A DNA stretch of 63,498 nucleotides, filler included, from Acidimicrobiia bacterium (lineage in GTDB: Bacteria > Actinomycetota > Acidimicrobiia > Spongiisociales > JAHEDJ01): the NCBI GenBank assembly GCA_029210695.1. It is 7 parts of 7 records of this genome, joined end to end, with 100 filler letters (N's around TTAATTAATTAA, not from the genome) between each part and the next. Parts side by side here need not be neighbours in the genome. Positions count along the whole stretch, not along the records: positions 39,665 to 47,789 come from JARGFH010000095.1; 6 more parts are not named here. The stretch is one strand, 5' to 3'. Shown in pieces: positions 10,971 through 55,985 of the stretch (position 1 is its first letter; each line of letters starts with the position of its first letter). The notes beneath the pieces were generated by a model. The model was not told the DNA's origin and did no database searches. It worked only from the letters and a program-made list of their open reading frames with translations. The translations under genes were made by a program, and so were the position numbers.

Positions 10971-11070
10971 NNNNNNNNNNNNNNNNNNNNNNNNNNNNNN
11001 NNNNNNNNNNNNNNTTAATTAATTAANNNNNNNNNNNNNNNNNNNNNNNNNNNNNNNNNNNNNNNNNNNN
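10971..11070. other. Artificial contig linker (also 21652-21751, 30712-30811, 39565-39664, 47790-47889, 55886-55985)
   Basis: N44-TTAATTAATTAA-N44, stops in all frames. Confidence 0.99.
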
Positions 11071-21651: not shown

Positions 21652-21751
21652 NNNNNNNNNNNNNNNNNNNNNNNNNNNNNNNNNNNNNNNNNNNNTTAAT
21701 TAATTAANNNNNNNNNNNNNNNNNNNNNNNNNNNNNNNNNNNNNNNNNNNN

Positions 21752-30711: not shown

Positions 30712-30811
30712 NNNNNNNNNNNNNNNNNNNNNNNNNNNNNNNNNNNNNNNNNNNNTTAATTAATTAANNNNNNNNNNNNNNNNNNNNNNNNNNNNNNNNN
30801 NNNNNNNNNNN

Positions 30812-39564: not shown

Positions 39565-39664
39565 NNNNNNNNNNNNNNNNNNNNNNNNNNNNNNNNNNNN
39601 NNNNNNNNTTAATTAATTAANNNNNNNNNNNNNNNNNNNNNNNNNNNNNNNNNNNNNNNNNNNN

Positions 39665-39739
39665 GAGCCCTCCTCTACGCCGGAAAACCCAACTGGAATC
39701 TACTCGCCACCATCACACCCCGCTGAAATCCGATGAGCC
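39665..39739 (+). mobile_element. 3' end of an ISL3-family element
   Basis: Encodes ALLYAGKPNWNLLATITPR*; terminus AATCCGATGAGCC (GGCTC-type IR). Confidence 0.8.
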
Positions 39740-39830
39740 AGATAACGGGCGGCAACAGGGTCTAAGTGCCCGACCTTCAGACGCTCCTAGGCAGGCCATT
39801 CTGTCCCAATCGAACCGCAGAATCAGATGT

Positions 39831-40775
39831 ATGGGTAATCTCAGATTGTTCAAGAGAGGAGCAACTGTCACCAGCCGACCCGAACCGCGTGCCCGAGTTG
39901 AGCTCCGCCTGAGCGGAGGAAGCGACGGTGCCATTCCTCTGAACGAACTCGCTCAGGTCGCAAACCATGCGCAAGAGCTTGTTCGCAAGCTAGCCCGGGC
40001 GATAGCGGACAAATCTGGGCCGGGACGCCCACCCGCCGTGCTCGATCAGATGTCGGCGCTCGTTGCGGTTGGGATTCATCAAGGCAGTGCTGTCCTTGAC
40101 ATCGAAGCACCTTCGTGGAGTGGCGAATTCGACCTCGCAGAAGATGTCGGTTTCGACGCAGGGATTCAGGCGCTCGAAATGGTGGCGGACGCAATGGCCG
40201 CAGTAGCAGGTTCCCAGCCACTTCCGGATAAGTTCAACGAGTCCAGCCGGGCGGACCTCGCACAACTCCTTGAAGCGACATCGTCGTACGAGAGACTCGA
40301 ATGGAACCTGTCGCACCACGGCAAAGAAGTGAGGGCCAGCGTGTCACCGATGGCAATCTCCGTGCCGGCCCTGCATCAGCCGACAAAGCGGCCACCTGGG
40401 CGCGGAACGGTGGAGGGCGAGCTATACGCCCTGAACGCTCGCACCGGGAGCTATCAACTTGAGGATGCCGCTCTGTACACCATTCGCTGCCACGTCGAAC
40501 CTGGCAGCATTCTGGCCGCAGAGCTTGATCGCCTCGTCCGCCGAACGGTCGCGGTGACGGGGATCGTCGATTGGGACAAAGCCGGCAGAGCGACCGACGT
40601 GAGGGTCGAGGCCATCAACGCACGGCCGCATGAAGCTACGAATGATTTCTGGGACTTCAGACTTGAGAAGGCCCTTTCGGATGTCCACGAAATCACCGGA
40701 ATCGAAGATCTCGCTCTTGCGGAAATAACTCCAGAAGAAGCTGACGCTTTCAGAACGGCGATGGGATTCGAATGA
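39831..40775 (+). CDS. Uncharacterised 314-aa protein coupled to a PIN gene
   Basis: Long ORF; beta-rich C-terminal half; ATGA overlap with the PIN gene. Confidence 0.75.
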   Translation: MGNLRLFKRGATVTSRPEPRARVELRLSGGSDGAIPLNELAQVANHAQELVRKLARAIADKSGPGRPPAVLDQMSALVAVGIHQGSAVLDIEAPSWSGEFDLAEDVGFDAGIQALEMVADAMAAVAGSQPLPDKFNESSRADLAQLLEATSSYERLEWNLSHHGKEVRASVSPMAISVPALHQPTKRPPGRGTVEGELYALNARTGSYQLEDAALYTIRCHVEPGSILAAELDRLVRRTVAVTGIVDWDKAGRATDVRVEAINARPHEATNDFWDFRLEKALSDVHEITGIEDLALAEITPEEADAFRTAMGFE

Positions 40776-41185
40776 CCCCGGATGCGGTGGTCGTGGACAC
40801 AAACGTCTTCTCCGCCGTGCTCACCCGCCGATTGCTTGCATCCCAATACGCGGAGTATCTCTCCGGCAAACGCCTAATCATTTCATTCCAGACAGTCGCC
40901 GAGATTCGCTTTGGTGGCATGGCTGCTGGATGGGGAGAGGCCCGAATGCGGGAGGCGGAACGAGCCATCGCCAAGGCAGCGACGATTCCGCCACACGATG
41001 AACTTGCGACGGAGTGGGCCTCGTTACGAGTGGAGTGCAAACGGGTCGGCCACGCCCTCGCTTCCAAAACCCACATGAGTGATCTCTGGATCGCGGCCAC
41101 GGCCAGCCTGATCGGAATACCACTCGTCAGCCATGACGCGATCTTCAAGGGAACACCGGGTCTCACCGTCCTCACTCTGCTGTGA
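40772..41185 (+). CDS. PIN-domain (VapC-like) nuclease
   Basis: VVDTNVFS, TVAEI, SDLWIAATA, LVSHD. Confidence 0.92.
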   Translation: MTPDAVVVDTNVFSAVLTRRLLASQYAEYLSGKRLIISFQTVAEIRFGGMAAGWGEARMREAERAIAKAATIPPHDELATEWASLRVECKRVGHALASKTHMSDLWIAATASLIGIPLVSHDAIFKGTPGLTVLTLL

Positions 41186-41258
41186 ACTTGTGAATCACCG
41201 AAGACCCAAGGCGTTGGAGGTGACTCTGAAGGAACTGTGCGGTGCCGACCCTTGCTAG

Positions 41259-42980
41259 GAGCGTGGGTCAGTATCTGCCAGCGAGGCGATCGGCTGGCTG
41301 ACGGTTGAAGGTGTTGTGGGTTCTCGCGTTTTGGGTTGGGTTCGACGAGAATGCGGGGCATGTCCTACGACTGTGATGATGATGCCCTTTTCGAGATCGC
41401 CGACGACGATGAACCGGCGGTGAAGGTTCCTGCGGGGAGGTCGAAGGTGTTCCGTCGTTACGACCCGGACCAGTCGTTCCTGATGCCGCCGTCTCTTGAT
41501 GACTGGCTCCCGCAAGACCATACGGCCCGGTTCGTTTCTGAGGTCGTTGACGACCTCTTGGATCTCTCGGTGGTGTATGACTCGTATGTTTCAGCGTCTG
41601 GTGCACCGCCGTATGACCCGACGATGATGTTGAAGCTCTTGTTGTATGCGTATTCGACGGGGGTGACGTCGTCTCGGGAGATGGAACGTCGCTGTCACAT
41701 TGATGTGGCGTTCCGTTGGCTGTCTGCGAACAACGCCCCGGATTACCGGTCGATTGCCCGGTTCCGTCGCCGTCACCTCGCTGCGTTGGACGACTTGTTC
41801 ACCCAGGTCCTTGTCCTGTGCTCAGAAGCAGGACTCGTCACGTTGGGTCGGGTTGCTTTGGATGGTACGAAGCTGCGGGCGTCTGCTTCTCGGCACAAGG
41901 CGATGAGTTATGGGCGTCTCGGACCCAGGATTGAACAGCTCGAGGCTGAGGTCGCGGCGATCCTTGCTGAGGCTGAAGCTGTTGACCGGGCAGAAGATGA
42001 CGAGTTCGGGGAAGACCGGCGTGGTGATGAGGTCCCACCGGAGTTGGCTCGTCGCGAGTCCCGTCTCGTCAAGTTGCGTGCAGCCAAAGAAGCGACCGAG
42101 GCCGAGGCGGCAGACAAGGCCGCGAAGAAAGCGGCAGACAAGGCTGAGAAGAACGGTGCCGACGAGACCGCGATAAGCGAGGCCGCAGCGACAGCTGCTG
42201 GTGGGGCGACCCCCGCTGATCGGACGCAGCGGAGTTTCACGGATCCCGAATCTCGGATGATGAAAACGACCGACGGTTTCCACTACGCCTACAACGCCCA
42301 AGCAGTTGTCGACGAGTACTCACAGGTCGTTCTTGCGGCAAACGTCACCGATCAGGCAGGCGACGTTCAACAGCTGATCCCGATGATCGACGCTACAACA
42401 GACAGCCTTACAGATGCCGGTATCGAAACGACCCTGGGGGTGGTGCTTGCCGACGCTGGCTACTGCTCCCAAGACAACCTGGAACACATCTCAGATTCAA
42501 AAGTCAACGCTTTGATAGCCACGGGACACATCAGACGCAACGAACAGGTACCAGACACGCCAAGAGGCCCGATCCCGAAAGACGCAACCCGACGCGAACG
42601 GATGGCACGCCGGCTGCGTACCAAACCCGGGCGGGCCGACTACGCCAGACGCAAAGCAATCGTCGAACCAGCATTCGGACAGATGAAAGTCCGCCAACAC
42701 GCCGGGCATCTCCGGCTACGAGGAATCGCCGGAGCGCAAGGCGAGTGGACCCTCCATGTCATCTGCCACAACCTACGCAAACTCGGAAACGCCGCCAATA
42801 TGGCCACCGCAGCAGCTTCCTGACACCCACCGGGCCACTTCTGGCGCCATTCGAACGATCTGGGGTCCTGTCATCTGCGGGCTCCGATGAAGGTTCCATC
42901 ATGATTCTCGGTCACATCGGATCCAAGACCTTGACCTACCCCAAGAATCGGGCACACGACACCAATTCTGACTCATGCTC
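41259..42980 (+). mobile_element. Complete IS1182-family element, 1722 bp, CTAG target duplication
   Basis: IRs GAGCGTGGGTCAGTAT and GAGCATGAGTCAGAAT (13/16); CTAG at 41255-58 and 42981-84. Confidence 0.92.
41360..42823 (+). CDS. IS1182-family transposase
   Basis: PPYDP.MMLK, PDYRSIARFR, LDGTK, TDPESR, ADAGY, VEPAFG, HNLRKL; start uncertain. Confidence 0.93.
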   Translation: MSYDCDDDALFEIADDDEPAVKVPAGRSKVFRRYDPDQSFLMPPSLDDWLPQDHTARFVSEVVDDLLDLSVVYDSYVSASGAPPYDPTMMLKLLLYAYSTGVTSSREMERRCHIDVAFRWLSANNAPDYRSIARFRRRHLAALDDLFTQVLVLCSEAGLVTLGRVALDGTKLRASASRHKAMSYGRLGPRIEQLEAEVAAILAEAEAVDRAEDDEFGEDRRGDEVPPELARRESRLVKLRAAKEATEAEAADKAAKKAADKAEKNGADETAISEAAATAAGGATPADRTQRSFTDPESRMMKTTDGFHYAYNAQAVVDEYSQVVLAANVTDQAGDVQQLIPMIDATTDSLTDAGIETTLGVVLADAGYCSQDNLEHISDSKVNALIATGHIRRNEQVPDTPRGPIPKDATRRERMARRLRTKPGRADYARRKAIVEPAFGQMKVRQHAGHLRLRGIAGAQGEWTLHVICHNLRKLGNAANMATAAAS

Positions 42981-43023
42981 CTAGGGCTGCCACAGCTCGG
43001 ACACACCCCGTGAGCTACGAGCG

Positions 43024-43716
43024 CTACTCCAATCGATCACTCTTCTGGATGTTGTGCTTCGCGCAGAGAAGTTGAATGTTGTCGGCAGTGAGTGACGAAC
43101 CTCCCCAAGAGAACGGGATCATGTGATCGAAGTGGAGATTCTCCGTTGATCCACACTTCACACATTTGCCCTTGTCGCGCTTCCACACTGCCAACTTCAC
43201 ATGAGTGGGAACAAGCCGTGTGTGATCAAGCTCCTGATCTTCAGGGTCCACGGCTTCGGCGTCCTCCTCGACTAGTGCCAGCTTGAACTTGCAGACGTAG
43301 CGGCCCTCGAGCTCCTGTTGCCAGGCGTCGACGAGATGGAACAAACCGGTGTACACCCAGATACCCGAGCGGACCTTCTCATAGACCCGCACCCGCTCAG
43401 GCGGTAGTTCATTGTTCTGGAATGCTTCAGCCGCCATGTAGAACAGGCCGTTCTGAGTGAGGGTCCCGTTTTCTGTGAGTAGCGGTTGGTCCAGGGTCTT
43501 GGGGTCAGGGTTGTCGGTACTCTTCGGTTGATCGTGCCCTTCGTAAATGAGAGTGCGACCTTCGTCGGTTATCTGGTCCTCGTATGGAGCTCCGGGGCGC
43601 ACGCTCATCAGCAAAACGCTGTGGTCCGGTCGGAGTCGAAAGTTCATACCCCGTTGGAGCATGGCGCCTTCGCGGGAACACATCTCGAGGTAGGCAATCA
43701 CGTCACCGGGTTGCAC
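43024..43716 (-). CDS. HNH endonuclease with N-terminal SRA-like domain (putative modification-dependent restriction)
   Basis: PYED..LIYEG..NG..VRVYEK..YTGLF.LVD; CVKCGS..DHMIP..GG..NIQLLC..HN. Confidence 0.8.
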   Translation of the reverse strand: MQPGDVIAYLEMCSREGAMLQRGMNFRLRPDHSVLLMSVRPGAPYEDQITDEGRTLIYEGHDQPKSTDNPDPKTLDQPLLTENGTLTQNGLFYMAAEAFQNNELPPERVRVYEKVRSGIWVYTGLFHLVDAWQQELEGRYVCKFKLALVEEDAEAVDPEDQELDHTRLVPTHVKLAVWKRDKGKCVKCGSTENLHFDHMIPFSWGGSSLTADNIQLLCAKHNIQKSDRLE

Positions 43717-43769
43717 GAACTACATGGTATCCGCCACTTTCTGTCAGCCGCGTCCTGTATGTTCCGGGT

Positions 43770-45425
43770 GTGGGGAAATACGACGCATGGCGACCGTTCT
43801 TCAGGGATCTCAAGCCTGGTGAACGTCGCGTGCCGCTCGAGGCCCTAAGTGATCTACTTGAGGGTGGATTACCGCAAGCCGCATATGAGCACCAGGCCTG
43901 GTGGTCGAACACGGGATACGCATCCGCGGCCTGGGCTGAATACGACTGGTACGCGCATCCGAAGCTGCGCGACGGGTACGTATTGTTCAATCTCACGCCC
44001 GGCCGTCGCGGCCGAAGCCCCGCTTCATCCAAACGAAGCAGCTATTCGGACCCAAGAACGATTACACCGAACACGCCTCCCCAGACTCAATCGAAGTCGG
44101 CAGCGGAGGTGATCCTGTTGGGCTGCGTTTCGGAGAAACGAGACCACCCGGCGCCAGCAAAAGACCTCTATATCTCCCCGTTGTGGGAACGGCGCCGCGC
44201 ATATGCCGAAGCGTCGGGACAGCCGTGGTACATCCTGAGTGCCGAACACGGCCTCCTGCATCCGGAGCAGGTCACCGCACCCTATGACGTCTCACTCAAA
44301 GATCTATCGGTTGATCAACGCAGGGCTTGGGCGCGTCGCACAGCACCTCGGTTGCTCGAGACACTGGTCGCCGCTGAGGCGGAGACAGTGGAGATCCATG
44401 CCGGCACCGCCTACACGGAATCAGGGCTCCGGCAGGCACTCGAGGCGTTGGGTTTTCAAGTTTTCATCCCGTTGGCCCACCACCGCATCGGTGTGCAACT
44501 CGCCTGGTACGACAATCCCAACCACCCGGATATCACCGCTCCGAGGTCGAGCCCAACGTCTAAGCCGCTCCAACAGCCGGCGCCGGATCATGTGGTGCGA
44601 CTCGCTGCTGACTACCGCTCGAAGGCGCTTGGCGGGGGGTGGGACGGACTTCCCGAGGTCGTGTGTGTAAAGGCAATGCGGGCGGCCGGTGCCGACGATC
44701 GAACCATTCGCCGGTGGATCACCTTTGCTGCTGCCATGGATCGCGCCCGCGACGCCGTGCAGCTATGGGAGGCATCCGTGGAGGCATATCGTCAGGCACC
44801 ATGGATTTACGATCCGTGGCAGGTCATTGCGAGACCTCACGACGATCTCCAGGCTGCTCTGCGACAGTACTCGGTGAGTCAGCGCCACGGCCCCGACTCC
44901 GACGCCTGGCAAACCATCGCCCAAACACTCACCGACACGGCCTGCCCAGGGTCAGTCATCGCAGCATTGAACGGCAAACCCACGAATGCATCAGACCTGC
45001 TTGAGGCGCTGCAGCGGAAGGGCCCCCAAGGAGTTCCCCGGTTCCCGCTACTTAGAGGGCCGAAGATCGGTCCGCTGTGGGTGCGGATGCTCGCTTGTCC
45101 GGGCGGTGCCGACATTCGCGGTATGGAGGTGATCCCAGTGGCCGTTGACACCCATGTTCAGCGGGTTACTGAGATGTTGGGTTTGGTGAGTCCAGTCGAA
45201 CTGAGTGGTCGCCACCGACGTGACATCCAGCAGGTTTGGTTCGATGCTGTGAACCAGGCGGGGATGTTCGGAGCTCCTTCTCCCATCGATGGCACGTCAG
45301 CCGGTATCGATCCCGCCCTCTGGGCTCTAGGCAGGGAAGGTTGCTCGAACTGCGAGCGGGCGAAAATAAAGCGACCAATCGGGTCGATATGCGATCTTTG
45401 CGTGCTGGGCCGGGTTGAATCATGA
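43770..45425 (+). CDS. Three-domain protein: DUF7662-like + DUF6884 + HhH-GPD glycosylase-like with CxxC..CxxC tail
   Basis: GKY..LPQAA..AWWSN..AW; LLGCVSEK..AKDLY.SPL..ILSAEHGL..PYD; LRGPKI..PVAVDTHV.R; DPALW; CSNC..CDLC. Confidence 0.8.
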   Translation: MGKYDAWRPFFRDLKPGERRVPLEALSDLLEGGLPQAAYEHQAWWSNTGYASAAWAEYDWYAHPKLRDGYVLFNLTPGRRGRSPASSKRSSYSDPRTITPNTPPQTQSKSAAEVILLGCVSEKRDHPAPAKDLYISPLWERRRAYAEASGQPWYILSAEHGLLHPEQVTAPYDVSLKDLSVDQRRAWARRTAPRLLETLVAAEAETVEIHAGTAYTESGLRQALEALGFQVFIPLAHHRIGVQLAWYDNPNHPDITAPRSSPTSKPLQQPAPDHVVRLAADYRSKALGGGWDGLPEVVCVKAMRAAGADDRTIRRWITFAAAMDRARDAVQLWEASVEAYRQAPWIYDPWQVIARPHDDLQAALRQYSVSQRHGPDSDAWQTIAQTLTDTACPGSVIAALNGKPTNASDLLEALQRKGPQGVPRFPLLRGPKIGPLWVRMLACPGGADIRGMEVIPVAVDTHVQRVTEMLGLVSPVELSGRHRRDIQQVWFDAVNQAGMFGAPSPIDGTSAGIDPALWALGREGCSNCERAKIKRPIGSICDLCVLGRVES

Positions 45426-46269
45426 GGAGCGGAGCGAGAACGTGGCTCTCTCAACGCTCCTCCTAGGCCTCAGAACACCTATCGAAGAAAATCTCTTCGT
45501 TGGCAAGGCCCGGTGGGAGATGCTGACCGCGAAGGTGGCTCAGCAAGAGGATGCGCCGCACGCCGACTACTACGACGAGCAAGTGTGGACCTTCTTGTTG
45601 GCGTGCGGGTACGCCGTCGGAGGCCCGGAAGGAGTCTCTGCACTCGAAGATCTTCTGACCGGCGGCGCCGGAGCATGGCGGACCGGTCACAAGATCTGGT
45701 TCGAGGTCCTGCCCACTCCCCCACGATTTCAGGAGGGCAACACCAATGTCGACCTTGCCGTGGGCGACATCCGGCTGCGCAGCGGCGTGGAGGGCGGGAT
45801 CGAGCTCGATCCGGAGTCGACGCCCAACTGGGTTTGCCTGACGGAGGCGAAATGGTATTCGGATATCGACACGAAGGTGTCCAACCAGCGAGAGCGCAAC
45901 CAGCTGGCGAGGGTGGCGGAGAACGCAGCTTGCCTGCAATCAGAAGGAGCCATCGTTGATCGACCGTTTGTGACACTGTTGACGCCGAGGAGGTTTCGTT
46001 CCAGCGAGCTCCGATCGCGGCTTTACGTCTACAAGTACCACGAATACCGGGATGATCCTGCACGGTTGGCCTTCGAATGGCGAGCAATGGACAATGCAAT
46101 GCCACCCCGGTCAAACAGCGGCTGGCGGTACCCGAAAAACCCCGACGAACGGGCCCGATCAATTCGCTTCCACTGGGTCACCTACGACGACCTTCTGAGC
46201 GAGGACAACCTGCCTGACACCCCAATCCGTGATGCCCTCGTTCGGGCTTTCGAGGATTGGACTCCCTAG
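45415..46269 (+). CDS. Putative PD-(D/E)xK nuclease-fold protein
   Basis: WFE..TNVDLAV..TEAKW..RNQLAR; overlaps the upstream gene. Confidence 0.7.
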   Translation: MNHEERSENVALSTLLLGLRTPIEENLFVGKARWEMLTAKVAQQEDAPHADYYDEQVWTFLLACGYAVGGPEGVSALEDLLTGGAGAWRTGHKIWFEVLPTPPRFQEGNTNVDLAVGDIRLRSGVEGGIELDPESTPNWVCLTEAKWYSDIDTKVSNQRERNQLARVAENAACLQSEGAIVDRPFVTLLTPRRFRSSELRSRLYVYKYHEYRDDPARLAFEWRAMDNAMPPRSNSGWRYPKNPDERARSIRFHWVTYDDLLSEDNLPDTPIRDALVRAFEDWTP

Positions 46270-47162
46270 CCCGCCACACGCGCCGGCCCGTGGAACACCT
46301 GCTCCCGGTGCCATTCGACGTACTGCTCGTCGACGGGCCGCGCCCCTGACTGTGGGCCGCGCACGTCTGCGCCGGCCAGGCTGAGCACCAGCCGCTCCGC
46401 CGATTCACCCGACCCGGAGAACCGCTGTGACACAGCGATGGTGTGATCGATCGTCAGGCCGACGACGCCGAGGTCGAGCAGCTTGTGATGGATCGTGCAG
46501 AGAGCCAGACCGTTGGCAACCTCGTCGGGCCCTTCAAAGGCATGCCACCGCACGTGAGCAGCATCGAGCCCAATGGTGCGGTCGGCGAGCCGTCCATCGA
46601 AACCGCAGAAGGCGCATCGACGCTCGTAGGCGGTCAGCACCTTGTCGCGGAACTCCGGGTCGCGGCGACGAATCGTCCGGGATACGACGGTCAATGCAAG
46701 AGGGCTCTCGGTGAGCCCGACGTCCTCCAGCAAGTCGGTGCGATAGGAATCACCGAACTCCTCCAGCAGCGCCCCCACGATGGTTGCCCGGATGGCCGGG
46801 TCGGTGATGGCCGCCGCTAAATCCTCGGTGATTTCCCCGATGCCGACCTCGCGCAGTTCCGACAACCGGGTCTCGGGCCACGGCCGGCCGTCCGAGGTGC
46901 TGACTCGCCAGAAACCCTCGTCGTTCTGGAGATGATGAAACGGGTACTGGGGGGTTGCCTTGGTGACGGGCGGGCCGTACCGGTCGAGGAGATCGGCAAC
47001 CACGGGTTCCGCTTCTGCGAACGTGACTCGCCGGCTGCCCGTCTGGGTGAATCGTCCGATCATGTAGAGGAGTAGGAGCGGCTTGTGCGGTGCCCGAACT
47101 CCACGTTGCGACCAGCGACGGAGGCTTGAGATACGTTCGACCCAGTCGGTGGCGGTCAACAT
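46266..47162 (-). CDS. Phosphorothioate-DNA-binding restriction endonuclease (SBD-HNH)
   Basis: RAPHKPLLLL..YPFHHL..GFW sulfur-binding signature; FRDKVL.AY..CAFCG..AAHV..NGLALC..HH. Confidence 0.88.
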   Translation of the reverse strand: MLTATDWVERISSLRRWSQRGVRAPHKPLLLLYMIGRFTQTGSRRVTFAEAEPVVADLLDRYGPPVTKATPQYPFHHLQNDEGFWRVSTSDGRPWPETRLSELREVGIGEITEDLAAAITDPAIRATIVGALLEEFGDSYRTDLLEDVGLTESPLALTVVSRTIRRRDPEFRDKVLTAYERRCAFCGFDGRLADRTIGLDAAHVRWHAFEGPDEVANGLALCTIHHKLLDLGVVGLTIDHTIAVSQRFSGSGESAERLVLSLAGADVRGPQSGARPVDEQYVEWHREQVFHGPARVAG

Positions 47163-47190
47163 CTGAGATTGAACCTACCAAGCGGCCGGC

Positions 47191-47713
47191 TCAACCCAGC
47201 AAGTTCTCTCGAACGGCTTTCTCGATTCTGGTCATCCGGTTCCGAACGGTCTTGGGAGCAAGTCCGGTGACTGCTGCTGCCTCGTCTACTTCGGCATTCG
47301 CAATCCAGATCATTCGGGCGATCGTCCGGTCGGCGTCGTCCTCCGCTATGGCATCGACGGCCTCCATAAATCGATCGGTCGTGTCGACCGTCCCCCAACC
47401 GAGACCCAGGTCGTAGCCGAGACGCGACCCGTGGTCTATGACCTGTGAGTAACCGCCCTCATCAACGCGCACCTGCGCATCCTTGATCCGCTTCCAAACC
47501 CTGAGGGCGTCCCTGGCGCGATCTCCGGCGACCTTCCTTACGAACCCGTGTGGATTATCGATCTCGTGACCGGCCGACGCTTTGCGCCAATACTCCTCCA
47601 CCGCAATGGCTGCTACCTCATCGTTCAGATTCAGTGCCGCGGATCGAAATATGACCCGATCTACCTCTTCTCTGGCAGCCATAAGCAACTCGGCGTCGAG
47701 TGTGTTGTCGGAC
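47191..47713 (-). pseudogene. ECF-sigma-like protein with its 5' end cut by IS21
   Basis: GFVRKVA...ARD region 2; EAAAVTGLAPKTVRNRMTR HTH; frame open up to the IS boundary. Confidence 0.6.
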
Positions 47714-47789
47714 TGACCACGCTCATTGAAACTCCCCAGACCTGCTCACTGAAATTCCCCACCTCCTGAGAGGGAATACCCACTGTTGG
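47714..47789 (+). mobile_element. IS21-family terminus
   Basis: TG start; repeated GCTCA(T/C)TGAAA(C/T)TCCCCA boxes. Confidence 0.75.
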
Positions 47790-47889
47790 NNNNNNNNNNN
47801 NNNNNNNNNNNNNNNNNNNNNNNNNNNNNNNNNTTAATTAATTAANNNNNNNNNNNNNNNNNNNNNNNNNNNNNNNNNNNNNNNNNNNN

Positions 47890-55885: not shown

Positions 55886-55985
55886 NNNNNNNNNNNNNNN
55901 NNNNNNNNNNNNNNNNNNNNNNNNNNNNNTTAATTAATTAANNNNNNNNNNNNNNNNNNNNNNNNNNNNNNNNNNNNNNNNNNNN

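Follow-up and report, generated by a model that had tools for sequence, protein, structure and literature searches.

Phages mask their DNA chemically; bacteria in turn have enzymes that attack DNA only when it carries such a mark. Here we describe a stretch of DNA of 63,498 nucleotides from the draft genome of an Acidimicrobiia bacterium (GCA_029210695.1), referred to as the window, in which positions 43024-47162 hold four tightly packed genes, named g1 to g4 below. The outer genes encode predicted nucleases of the SRA-HNH kind (g1) and of the sulfur-binding domain (SBD)-HNH kind (g4), g2 encodes a three-domain protein whose C-terminal part is modeled as a HhH-GPD glycosylase fold, and g3 encodes a solitary PD-(D/E)xK-like protein. 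We think it rather probable that the segment is a compact, horizontally acquired defense islet, made of four independently evolving single-gene modules that would attack DNA. Most likely, g1 and g4 are of known kinds, g2 is a new variant, and g3 represents an unnamed nuclease family. The four genes and their parts are as follows.

43024..43716, minus strand: g1, predicted SRA-HNH nuclease, 230 aa (Pfam SAD_SRA and HNH)
43258-43656 (residues ~21-153): SRA-like reader of g1
43030-43164 (residues 185-229): HNH domain of g1
43717..43769, no strand: divergent g1/g2 spacer, 53 bp (read from the sequence)
43770..45425, plus strand: g2, three-domain protein, 551 aa (DUF7662, DUF6884 and HhH-GPD fold)
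About 43770-44000: DUF7662 of g2, followed by a disordered linker (residues 79-108)
44103-44543 (residues 112-258): DUF6884, YaaA-like and DpdC-like domain of g2
44565-45422 (residues 266-551): predicted HhH-GPD fold of g2
45442..46269, plus strand: g3, solitary PD-(D/E)xK-like putative nuclease, 275 aa (AlphaFold 2 fold and invariant D/E/K)
46266..47162, minus strand: g4, member of the SBD-HNH phosphorothioate-dependent restriction endonuclease family, 298 aa (NF045808)
46704-47150 (residues ~5-153): SBD of g4
46458-46616 (residues 183-235): HNH_2 domain of g4

The genes g1 and g2 diverge across the 53-bp spacer, g2 and g3 are separated by 16 bp, and g3 and g4 converge with a 4-bp overlap. 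The longest open reading frame (ORF) of g2 spans 43584-45425; its start was assigned to GTG 43770 because relatives begin MGKYD there and the public record of the contig holds a 551-aa product. The g3 frame opens at 45415, and GTG 45442 is the likely start, given a GGAG 7 nt upstream and the 275-aa length of all four members of its 90% cluster. The contig that carries the islet occupies window positions 39665-47789 and is the whole of contig 176 (G000:C176, 8,125 bp) of the host draft assembly (G000; 3.91 Mb, 181 contigs, 97.85% complete, 0.38% contaminated).

A sequence-only reading of this DNA had proposed four closely spaced genes encoding an SRA-like-HNH protein, a glycosylase fusion, a PD-(D/E)xK protein and an SBD-HNH protein, and all four were found where it had placed them, with those domains. 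Its outer assignments scored above curated cut-offs in Pfam and NCBIfam HMM searches, and the N-terminal domains match SUVH5 SRA and ScoMcrA/SprMcrA SBD structures. The glycosylase fusion is borne out by the C-terminal HhH-GPD fold in the AlphaFold 2 (AF2) model of g2, and the PD-(D/E)xK call by an invariant D..ExK set in g3, with restriction-endonuclease-like fold matches of modest Z.

Outer genes g1 and g4

The clearest assignment is that of g4, which matches the NCBIfam model NF045808, "phosphorothioated DNA-binding restriction endonuclease", at 282.3 bits (cut-off 180), with residues 6-291 covering positions 2-284 of 284. Matches to the solved sulfur-binding domains of ScoMcrA (5zmm, E 1.1e-6) and SprMcrA (7cc9, E 6.6e-5) carry modest phmmer E-values, 1e-6 to 7e-5. 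The sulfur-recognition residues are kept as P25-H26-K27-P28 and Q72-Y73-P74-F75, which align to the HRP and YPF of ScoMcrA; passages of Lutz et al. (PMC7461809) name HR/HK and YP as the sulfur-recognition residues of SBDs, and the same source covers published biochemistry of both the SBD-HNH and the SRA-HNH kinds. The HNH_2 motif consists of C183/C186, H203, N217 and H225/H226. In its two-domain order, its HK and YP residues and its HNH H..N..H with a Cys/His zinc site, g4 is like the SBD-HNH endonucleases SprMcrA and EcoWI, and on these features belongs to the SBD-HNH kind of phosphorothioate-dependent nuclease. Its SBD would bind phosphorothioate sulfur and its HNH domain would cut nearby.

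For g1, Pfam gives SAD_SRA at 33.8 bits (cut-off 30.7) and HNH at 31 bits (cut-off 21.4). A profile of the g1 family, made from 36 sequences out of 144 representative clusters at E 1e-30, matched the SUVH5 SRA domain (3q0b) at E 4.9e-4 over positions 21-153, the whole reader domain. Support for the SRA assignment is thus marginal but consistent. The C-terminal part carries C185xxC188, H195-F-D-H198, N213 and C218-A-K-H221-N, a beta-beta-alpha-metal motif with its zinc-binding Cys intact, and C185, C188 and C218 are invariant across the 36 sequences. By sequence, g1 belongs to the SRA-HNH kind of modification-dependent nuclease, in which the SRA-like domain would read a flipped modified cytosine and the HNH domain would cut, in the manner of a type IV enzyme. 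It resembles TagI and the SRA-HNH part of ScoMcrA in having an SRA-like reader followed by HNH within ~230 aa. It differs from TagI in that its best matches among solved structures are SRA domains of plant SUVH proteins, and we take g1 to be a lineage separate from TagI because PDB sequence searches returned no match to the solved structure (6ghs).

The host assembly holds no match to DndC (TIGR03183) and none to C5-cytosine methylase (PF00145), which is what carriage of g1- and g4-type enzymes requires and fits their likeness to the characterized endonucleases of both kinds. Enzymes such as g1 and g4 could be used as tools for mapping 5-methylcytosine and 5-hydroxymethylcytosine (g1) and phosphorothioate (g4).

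The three-domain protein g2

Pfam recognizes two domains in g2, DUF6884 (PF21818; 145.9 bits, cut-off 30, 1e-42) and DUF7662 (26.7 bits, 4.9e-6), and the protein matches the PADLOC candidate model PDC-M57A at 4.8e-28. The AF2 model of the full-length protein (predicted local distance difference test, pLDDT, 89.5) has three folded parts. For residues 266-551, Foldseek returned MUTYH, EndoIII and a queuine-salvage enzyme at probability 1.00. VIA-align ranked the queuine-salvage glycosylase first (7u07_A, Z 16.9, root-mean-square deviation (rmsd) 3.3, 228 aligned; 7ugk_A, Z 16.5), followed by AGOG (1xqp_A, Z 16.2), NTHL1 (15.1), EndoIII (2abk_A, 14.9) and MutY (14.5-14.3); 21 glycosylase entries lie at Z 16.9-10.3 (model residues 263-551), 11 of them at Z 16.9-14.2. 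The Atlas concurs, with an AGOG-like cluster at TM 0.74/0.80 and also EndoIII and Q_salvage clusters.

The features expected around the hairpin are in place: a Gly/Pro-rich loop (G430-P-K432-I-G, P444-G-G) and, after the hairpin, an Asp within PVAVD460, which extends to PVAVD(T/V)(H/Q)V in the family. Across 45 C-terminal domains of the family, K432 (of GPKIG), D460 (of PVAVD), C525, C528, C541 and C544 are invariant, the four Cys forming a CX2C-X12-CX2C motif. The best structural matches, Qng1/DUF2419, AGOG and Endonuclease III (Z 16.9, 16.2 and 14.9), share the Asp after the hairpin, and g2 differs from them in that sequence similarity is undetectable. The cluster loop of EndoIII is C-X6-C-X2-C-X5-C, and the invariant Cys of g2 are spaced differently. 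Membership of g2 in the HhH-GPD superfamily, as predicted from the model, is at fold level only.

The middle domain keeps both DUF6884 motifs, CxxxK (G118-C-V-S-E-K123, with C119 and K123) and LSAxxG (L156-S-A-E-H-G161), which passages of a Pfam paper (PMC11701544) propose as the active site. In fold it is like YaaA (DUF328), aligning to 5caj_B over residues 112-258 (VIA-align, Z 10.1, rmsd 3.5, 142 aligned). Because PADLOC models for DpdC touched g2 weakly, we sought a real DpdC. One was found among 401 genomes of the phylum, in a genome of the same class as the host (G129), where its neighbors are a FolE2 GTP cyclohydrolase gene on one side and a DndB-like gene on the other (L146, G129:C1:147000-150905), as expected of a dpd cluster; the protein is identical to one listed under Ilumatobacter fluminis and has no Pfam match at E 0.1. 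From this protein 77 relatives were gathered, of which nine carry a precomputed PF21818 match, and 43 were aligned as a DpdC profile. Profile-profile comparison (hhalign) of the g2 and DpdC families gave 91.7% probability and E 7.8e-7 over 194 columns, and the DpdC family likewise carries CxxxK (C13xxxK17) and SAGYGL, so the two share CxxxK and SAxxG motifs. The likeness is one of homology; g2 falls outside the DpdC family, carries a glycosylase domain in the same chain, and has no dpdA or dpdB nearby as the Dpd system would. According to passages of a published account (PMC10164549), DpdC turns preQ0-DNA into ADG-DNA.

The DpdC homology of the DUF6884 domain and the queuine-salvage match of the glycosylase domain are both new here, and as two independent pointers they weakly indicate 7-deazaguanine DNA as the target of g2. 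To our knowledge, the queuine-salvage glycosylase is the only HhH enzyme that cleaves a 7-deazaguanine nucleotide. A third consideration is a preprint by Getz et al. in which HhH glycosylases, the Dag families (Dag1-Dag23), are reported as a defense against 7-deazaguanine phages (bioRxiv 10.1101/2025.10.29.685425). Given the DpdC homology, the top-ranked queuine-salvage match and the Dag preprint, deazapurine DNA is our best single guess for the target, offered tentatively. In the proposed mechanism, the YaaA-like, DpdC-related DUF6884 domain would engage a flipped unusual base, most likely a 7-deazaguanine derivative, the HhH-GPD domain would remove the base, and the resulting abasic sites would stop phage replication.

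This leads to the possible, if still doubtful, proposal that g2 represents a widespread single-polypeptide immune enzyme against 7-deazaguanine phage DNA, in which a DpdC-derived domain, sharing its Cys/Lys motif with the enzyme that hydrates the preQ0 nitrile in DNA, flips and reads or converts the base before the glycosylase removes it. If true, a host modification enzyme would have been co-opted to serve a restriction-like glycosylase as its sensor, and the islet would cover three marks that differ in chemistry, namely a modified cytosine, sulfur in the backbone and a deazapurine. The link to DpdC in any case supplies a concrete, cheap hypothesis on recognition in the g2 family, one that would connect a family of DNA-modifying enzymes with immune sensing.

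Among known immune glycosylases, g2 is like Dag, Brig1 and Brig3-BapA in its HhH-superfamily glycosylase fold and its occurrence in defense islands, the likeness to Dag being by fold only. It differs from the Dag and Brig glycosylases by its extra DUF7662 domain and its CX2C-X12-CX2C motif. For the Brig3 system, a preprint describes a glycosylase aided by a separate base-modifying hydrolase, BapA, in one operon (bioRxiv 10.64898/2026.02.25.707755), a precedent for pairing a glycosylase with a base-modifying activity that the g2 fusion recalls. In g2 the second activity would be fused and not carried by a separate gene, and its domain is DpdC/YaaA-like and not a glucosidase. The searched passages of the Dag preprint contain neither 'DUF' nor 'YaaA'. 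We found no published study of the g2 family, nothing on PDC-M57, and, among the DUF6884 papers found, none on defense.

Variation among relatives bears on how the parts of g2 cooperate. The N-terminal module varies, being an OGG-like domain (PF21790), HD, or absent, and two relatives are permuted to HhH-DUF6884-DUF7662 (L121:7857-9542 and L132:3352-4977), which argues that the DUF6884 and glycosylase domains work together. At one further locus (L093), PF21790 is encoded by its own gene, immediately upstream of the g2 relative.

The family has hundreds of members in defense islands. From 80 fetched metagenome loci with a g2 relative, we picked 15 for their long flanks, and 13 of these carry defense genes within 4.5 kb: BrxA, BrxC/D, BrxL, PglZ, McrBC (twice), Mrr, REase-ARP (twice), a Schlafen-type helicase (twice), AbiE, HepT, NERD, type ISP and SRA-HNH. 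A g1-like SRA-HNH gene adjoins the g2 relative in two of the 80 loci, its product being 67% identical to g1 in one (L066). No g2 relative was found in 2.9 million viral contigs. DUF429 genes recur in these islands: two stand beside g2 relatives (L066:3250-4527 and L132:6217-7299) and one directly upstream of a g3 relative (L050:7041-7859).

These neighborhoods also bear on whether g2 is instead a base-excision glycosylase of DNA repair, with a YaaA-like domain that binds lesions and no role in immunity. HhH-GPD enzymes are classic repair enzymes, and the DUF6884 member YfjM appears, in passages of the Pfam paper (PMC11701544), among interactors of abasic and RNA-base lesions. We regard the repair role as unlikely, since defense genes flank 13 of the 15 relatives, g2 matches PDC-M57A and lies between two predicted type IV nucleases beside an insertion sequence, and a full-length copy occurs in only one of 41 related genomes. 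One relative, from the same order, retains only a decayed DUF6884 fragment with three stops, two TAG and one TAA (L148, G026:C37:10234-10770).

The PD-(D/E)xK-like protein g3

Pfam, NCBIfam and PADLOC gave no match for g3, a PDB sequence search returned nothing meaningful, and Foldseek found no match at E 0.001. The AF2 model (pLDDT 92.9) was more informative. Nearly all of the top 35 VIA-align matches have the restriction-endonuclease fold, at Z 5.5-4.0, below 8; the best is 1xmx_A (rmsd 3.9, 120 aligned), and Bse634I, PspGI, SgrAI, Cfr10I and NgoMIV represent type II enzymes. Atlas neighbors are PDDEXK_4, RE_BanI_C and HindVP (TM 0.51 or below, or score 0.83). D104, E135 and K137 (D113, E144 and K146 in a 284-aa numbering) are invariant in 54 sequences, and an RNQLARV helix is also conserved. 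The family is large and has no name; a single Atlas cluster has 2,309 members, and a scan of the viral contigs found one relative. We conclude that g3 is probably a stand-alone nuclease with a defensive role; any dependence on DNA modification is only a guess. On this reading, over 2,300 unnamed proteins of one family join the candidate stand-alone defense nucleases.

Might g3 be a conventional, type II-like restriction enzyme, with the methylase that protects the host encoded at another place in the genome? The fold matches are mostly type II enzymes, and the host has 10 methylase matches above cut-off (five N6_N4 and five N6). At the 22 g3 loci surveyed for neighbors, however, a methylase lies within 3.2 kb in just two, a Dam-like gene (L023) and an N6_N4 fragment (L033), and the islet's own contig has none. 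Directly upstream of the g3 relative in four of the 22 (L030, L034, L021 and L045) is a WYL-WCX regulator gene, ending 44-63 bp before it, which suggests transcriptional control instead. We therefore give the type II interpretation a small probability. Defense-type genes occur in roughly half of the 22 loci.

Two arrangements around g3 relatives are recorded as side observations. A GNAT acetyltransferase is fused to the g3-family domain in a 412-aa form (Atlas, TM 0.80 over 249 residues), and at another locus (L015:808-1656) a separate GNAT gene lies just upstream of the g3 relative. At L030 and L034, a 'Swiss Army Knife' gene of the ADP-ribosylglycohydrolase/phosphatase type follows.

Independence of the modules, host and contig

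The middle genes could form a two-part system: the g2 glycosylase would either tag foreign DNA by leaving abasic sites in it or recognize a modified base, and cleavage at that place would fall to the PD-(D/E)xK protein. The two lie on the same strand with the ribosome-binding site of g3 at the stop of g2, their 16-bp spacing makes co-transcription likely, and near-identical copies of g2, g3 and g4 share contigs of 30,259 bp and 2,766 bp. Two sets of loci were compared (tblastn, E 1e-3): 50 from genomes, each carrying a g3 relative, and 80 from metagenomes, each carrying a g2 relative. A g2 relative was present in 0/50 of the former and a g3 relative in 0/80 of the latter. Clustering of flanking ORFs, overlapping-frame artifacts aside, gave no neighbor family in more than six of the 50 or five of the 80 loci, and both families occur alone beside unrelated genes. 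With no co-occurrence and no strongly conserved neighbor for either family, a conserved g2-g3 pair was rejected, and we judge the two-part system improbable, slightly more so than the repair and type II interpretations. The same counts lead us to treat g1 to g4 as independent modules.

The islet belongs to the accessory part of the genome: a DNA-level search of 40 relatives, six of them of the same genus, did not find it. By profile, g3, a match to NF045808 above cut-off and full-length g2 each occur in one of 41 genomes, which is the host in every case. The insertion sequence next door, the repeat-bounded contig and the broken DUF6884 relative would suit a set of decayed mobile genes that came together by chance and now do nothing, but the four open frames, the intact catalytic and metal-binding residues and the near-identical copies on other contigs make this very improbable.

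The sequence-only reading had called the segment a type IV restriction island whose middle pair reads a third modification. What stands of this is that g1 and g4 are of modification-dependent kinds and lie in an accessory segment; in place of a conserved middle pair we favor four independent modules, and the third-modification reader survives as an idea for g2 alone, not for g2 and g3 as a functional pair. Its remark that the contig carries no methyltransferase, dnd or dpd gene is true, but the contig is just 8.1 kb, so we checked the whole genome. The DpdC model has no host match at E 0.001 or below, there is one TGT only, lying elsewhere, and g2 is the one DUF6884 gene. The supposition that the host lacks dnd and ssp agrees with the absence of DndC from the assembly; for Ssp, the DUF4007/SspB search was uninformative because its control matched nowhere. 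With no dnd, C5 methylase or dpd found, the host is compatible with carrying the islet.

Several points weigh against the defense-islet interpretation or its parts, the uninformative Ssp search among them. The activities and substrates proposed for all four proteins are read from domains, folds, catalytic motifs, neighborhoods and patchy distribution. For g1, the SAD_SRA score lies merely 3 bits above its cut-off, and the missing match to the characterized SRA-HNH enzyme TagI belongs here as well. For g2, residues 266-551 have no Pfam match at E 0.1, including to HhH-GPD (PF00730), and the glycosylase domain found nothing meaningful among PDB sequences, the 45-domain profile returning only chance Mediator subunit matches at E 10. 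The PADLOC DpdC models reached only E 0.005 and 0.016 on g2, and hhalign of one DpdC sequence with the g2 profile gave a probability of 6%. AGOG (Z 16.2) ties with the queuine-salvage match, and NTHL1/EndoIII (Z 15) come close, so that this match leaves the substrate unsettled. Two of the 15 g2 loci (L100 and L071) have no defense genes, and about half of the 22 g3 loci likewise have only housekeeping or unnamed neighbors. If g3 is an ordinary restriction enzyme, one of the 10 host methylases could protect against it. Finally, near-identical strains keep g2, g3 and g4 together on the two contigs named above, and a local functional link between g2 and g3 may exist.

The contig reads, from left to right, a 314-aa ORF, a PIN/VapC-like gene, an IS1182-family transposase gene, g1 to g4, and a 165-aa ORF. 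The islet adjoins the transposase gene and sits between multi-copy repeats. The two contig ends are sequences of 73-84 nt with copies elsewhere in the assembly: 14, in 12 other contigs, for the first ~75 nt (39665-39740), and 11, each in a different contig, for the last ~76 nt (47713-47789). Nearly all of these copies lie at or near contig ends. These bounding repeats are probably insertion sequences and would account for the breaks in the assembly at both ends. The remaining features of the window are as follows.

41336..42823, plus strand: IS1182-family transposase beside the islet (NF033551, 350.4 bits, cut-off 270; Pfam DUF772 and DDE_Tnp_1)
47191..47688, minus strand: 165-aa ORF upstream of g4, 28-bp gap, same strand as g4
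10971-11070, 21652-21751, 30712-30811, 39565-39664, 47790-47889 and 55886-55985: spacers, each N44-TTAATTAATTAA-N44

The window consists of separate contigs chained by these six spacers, and genes on either side of a spacer have no physical linkage. A simple scan of the g1/g2 spacer found no sigma-70-like site. The wider promoter and terminator scan was uninformative, giving no promoter-like site and one terminator-like site, which lies within g2 on the minus strand, with shuffled sequences having more.

The 165-aa ORF shows a weak likeness to ECF sigma region 4 (TIGR02937, E 0.002, 17.8 bits, below the cut-off of 42.9), with no Pfam match at 1e-5 and only weak PADLOC and NCBIfam matches; it may be co-transcribed with g4. 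At the other end of the contig (39831-41185), the 314-aa ORF, for which Pfam, NCBIfam and PADLOC searches gave no family, overlaps the PIN/VapC-like gene (Pfam PIN, 47.8 bits) by 4 bp and may encode an unusually large antitoxin partner for it.

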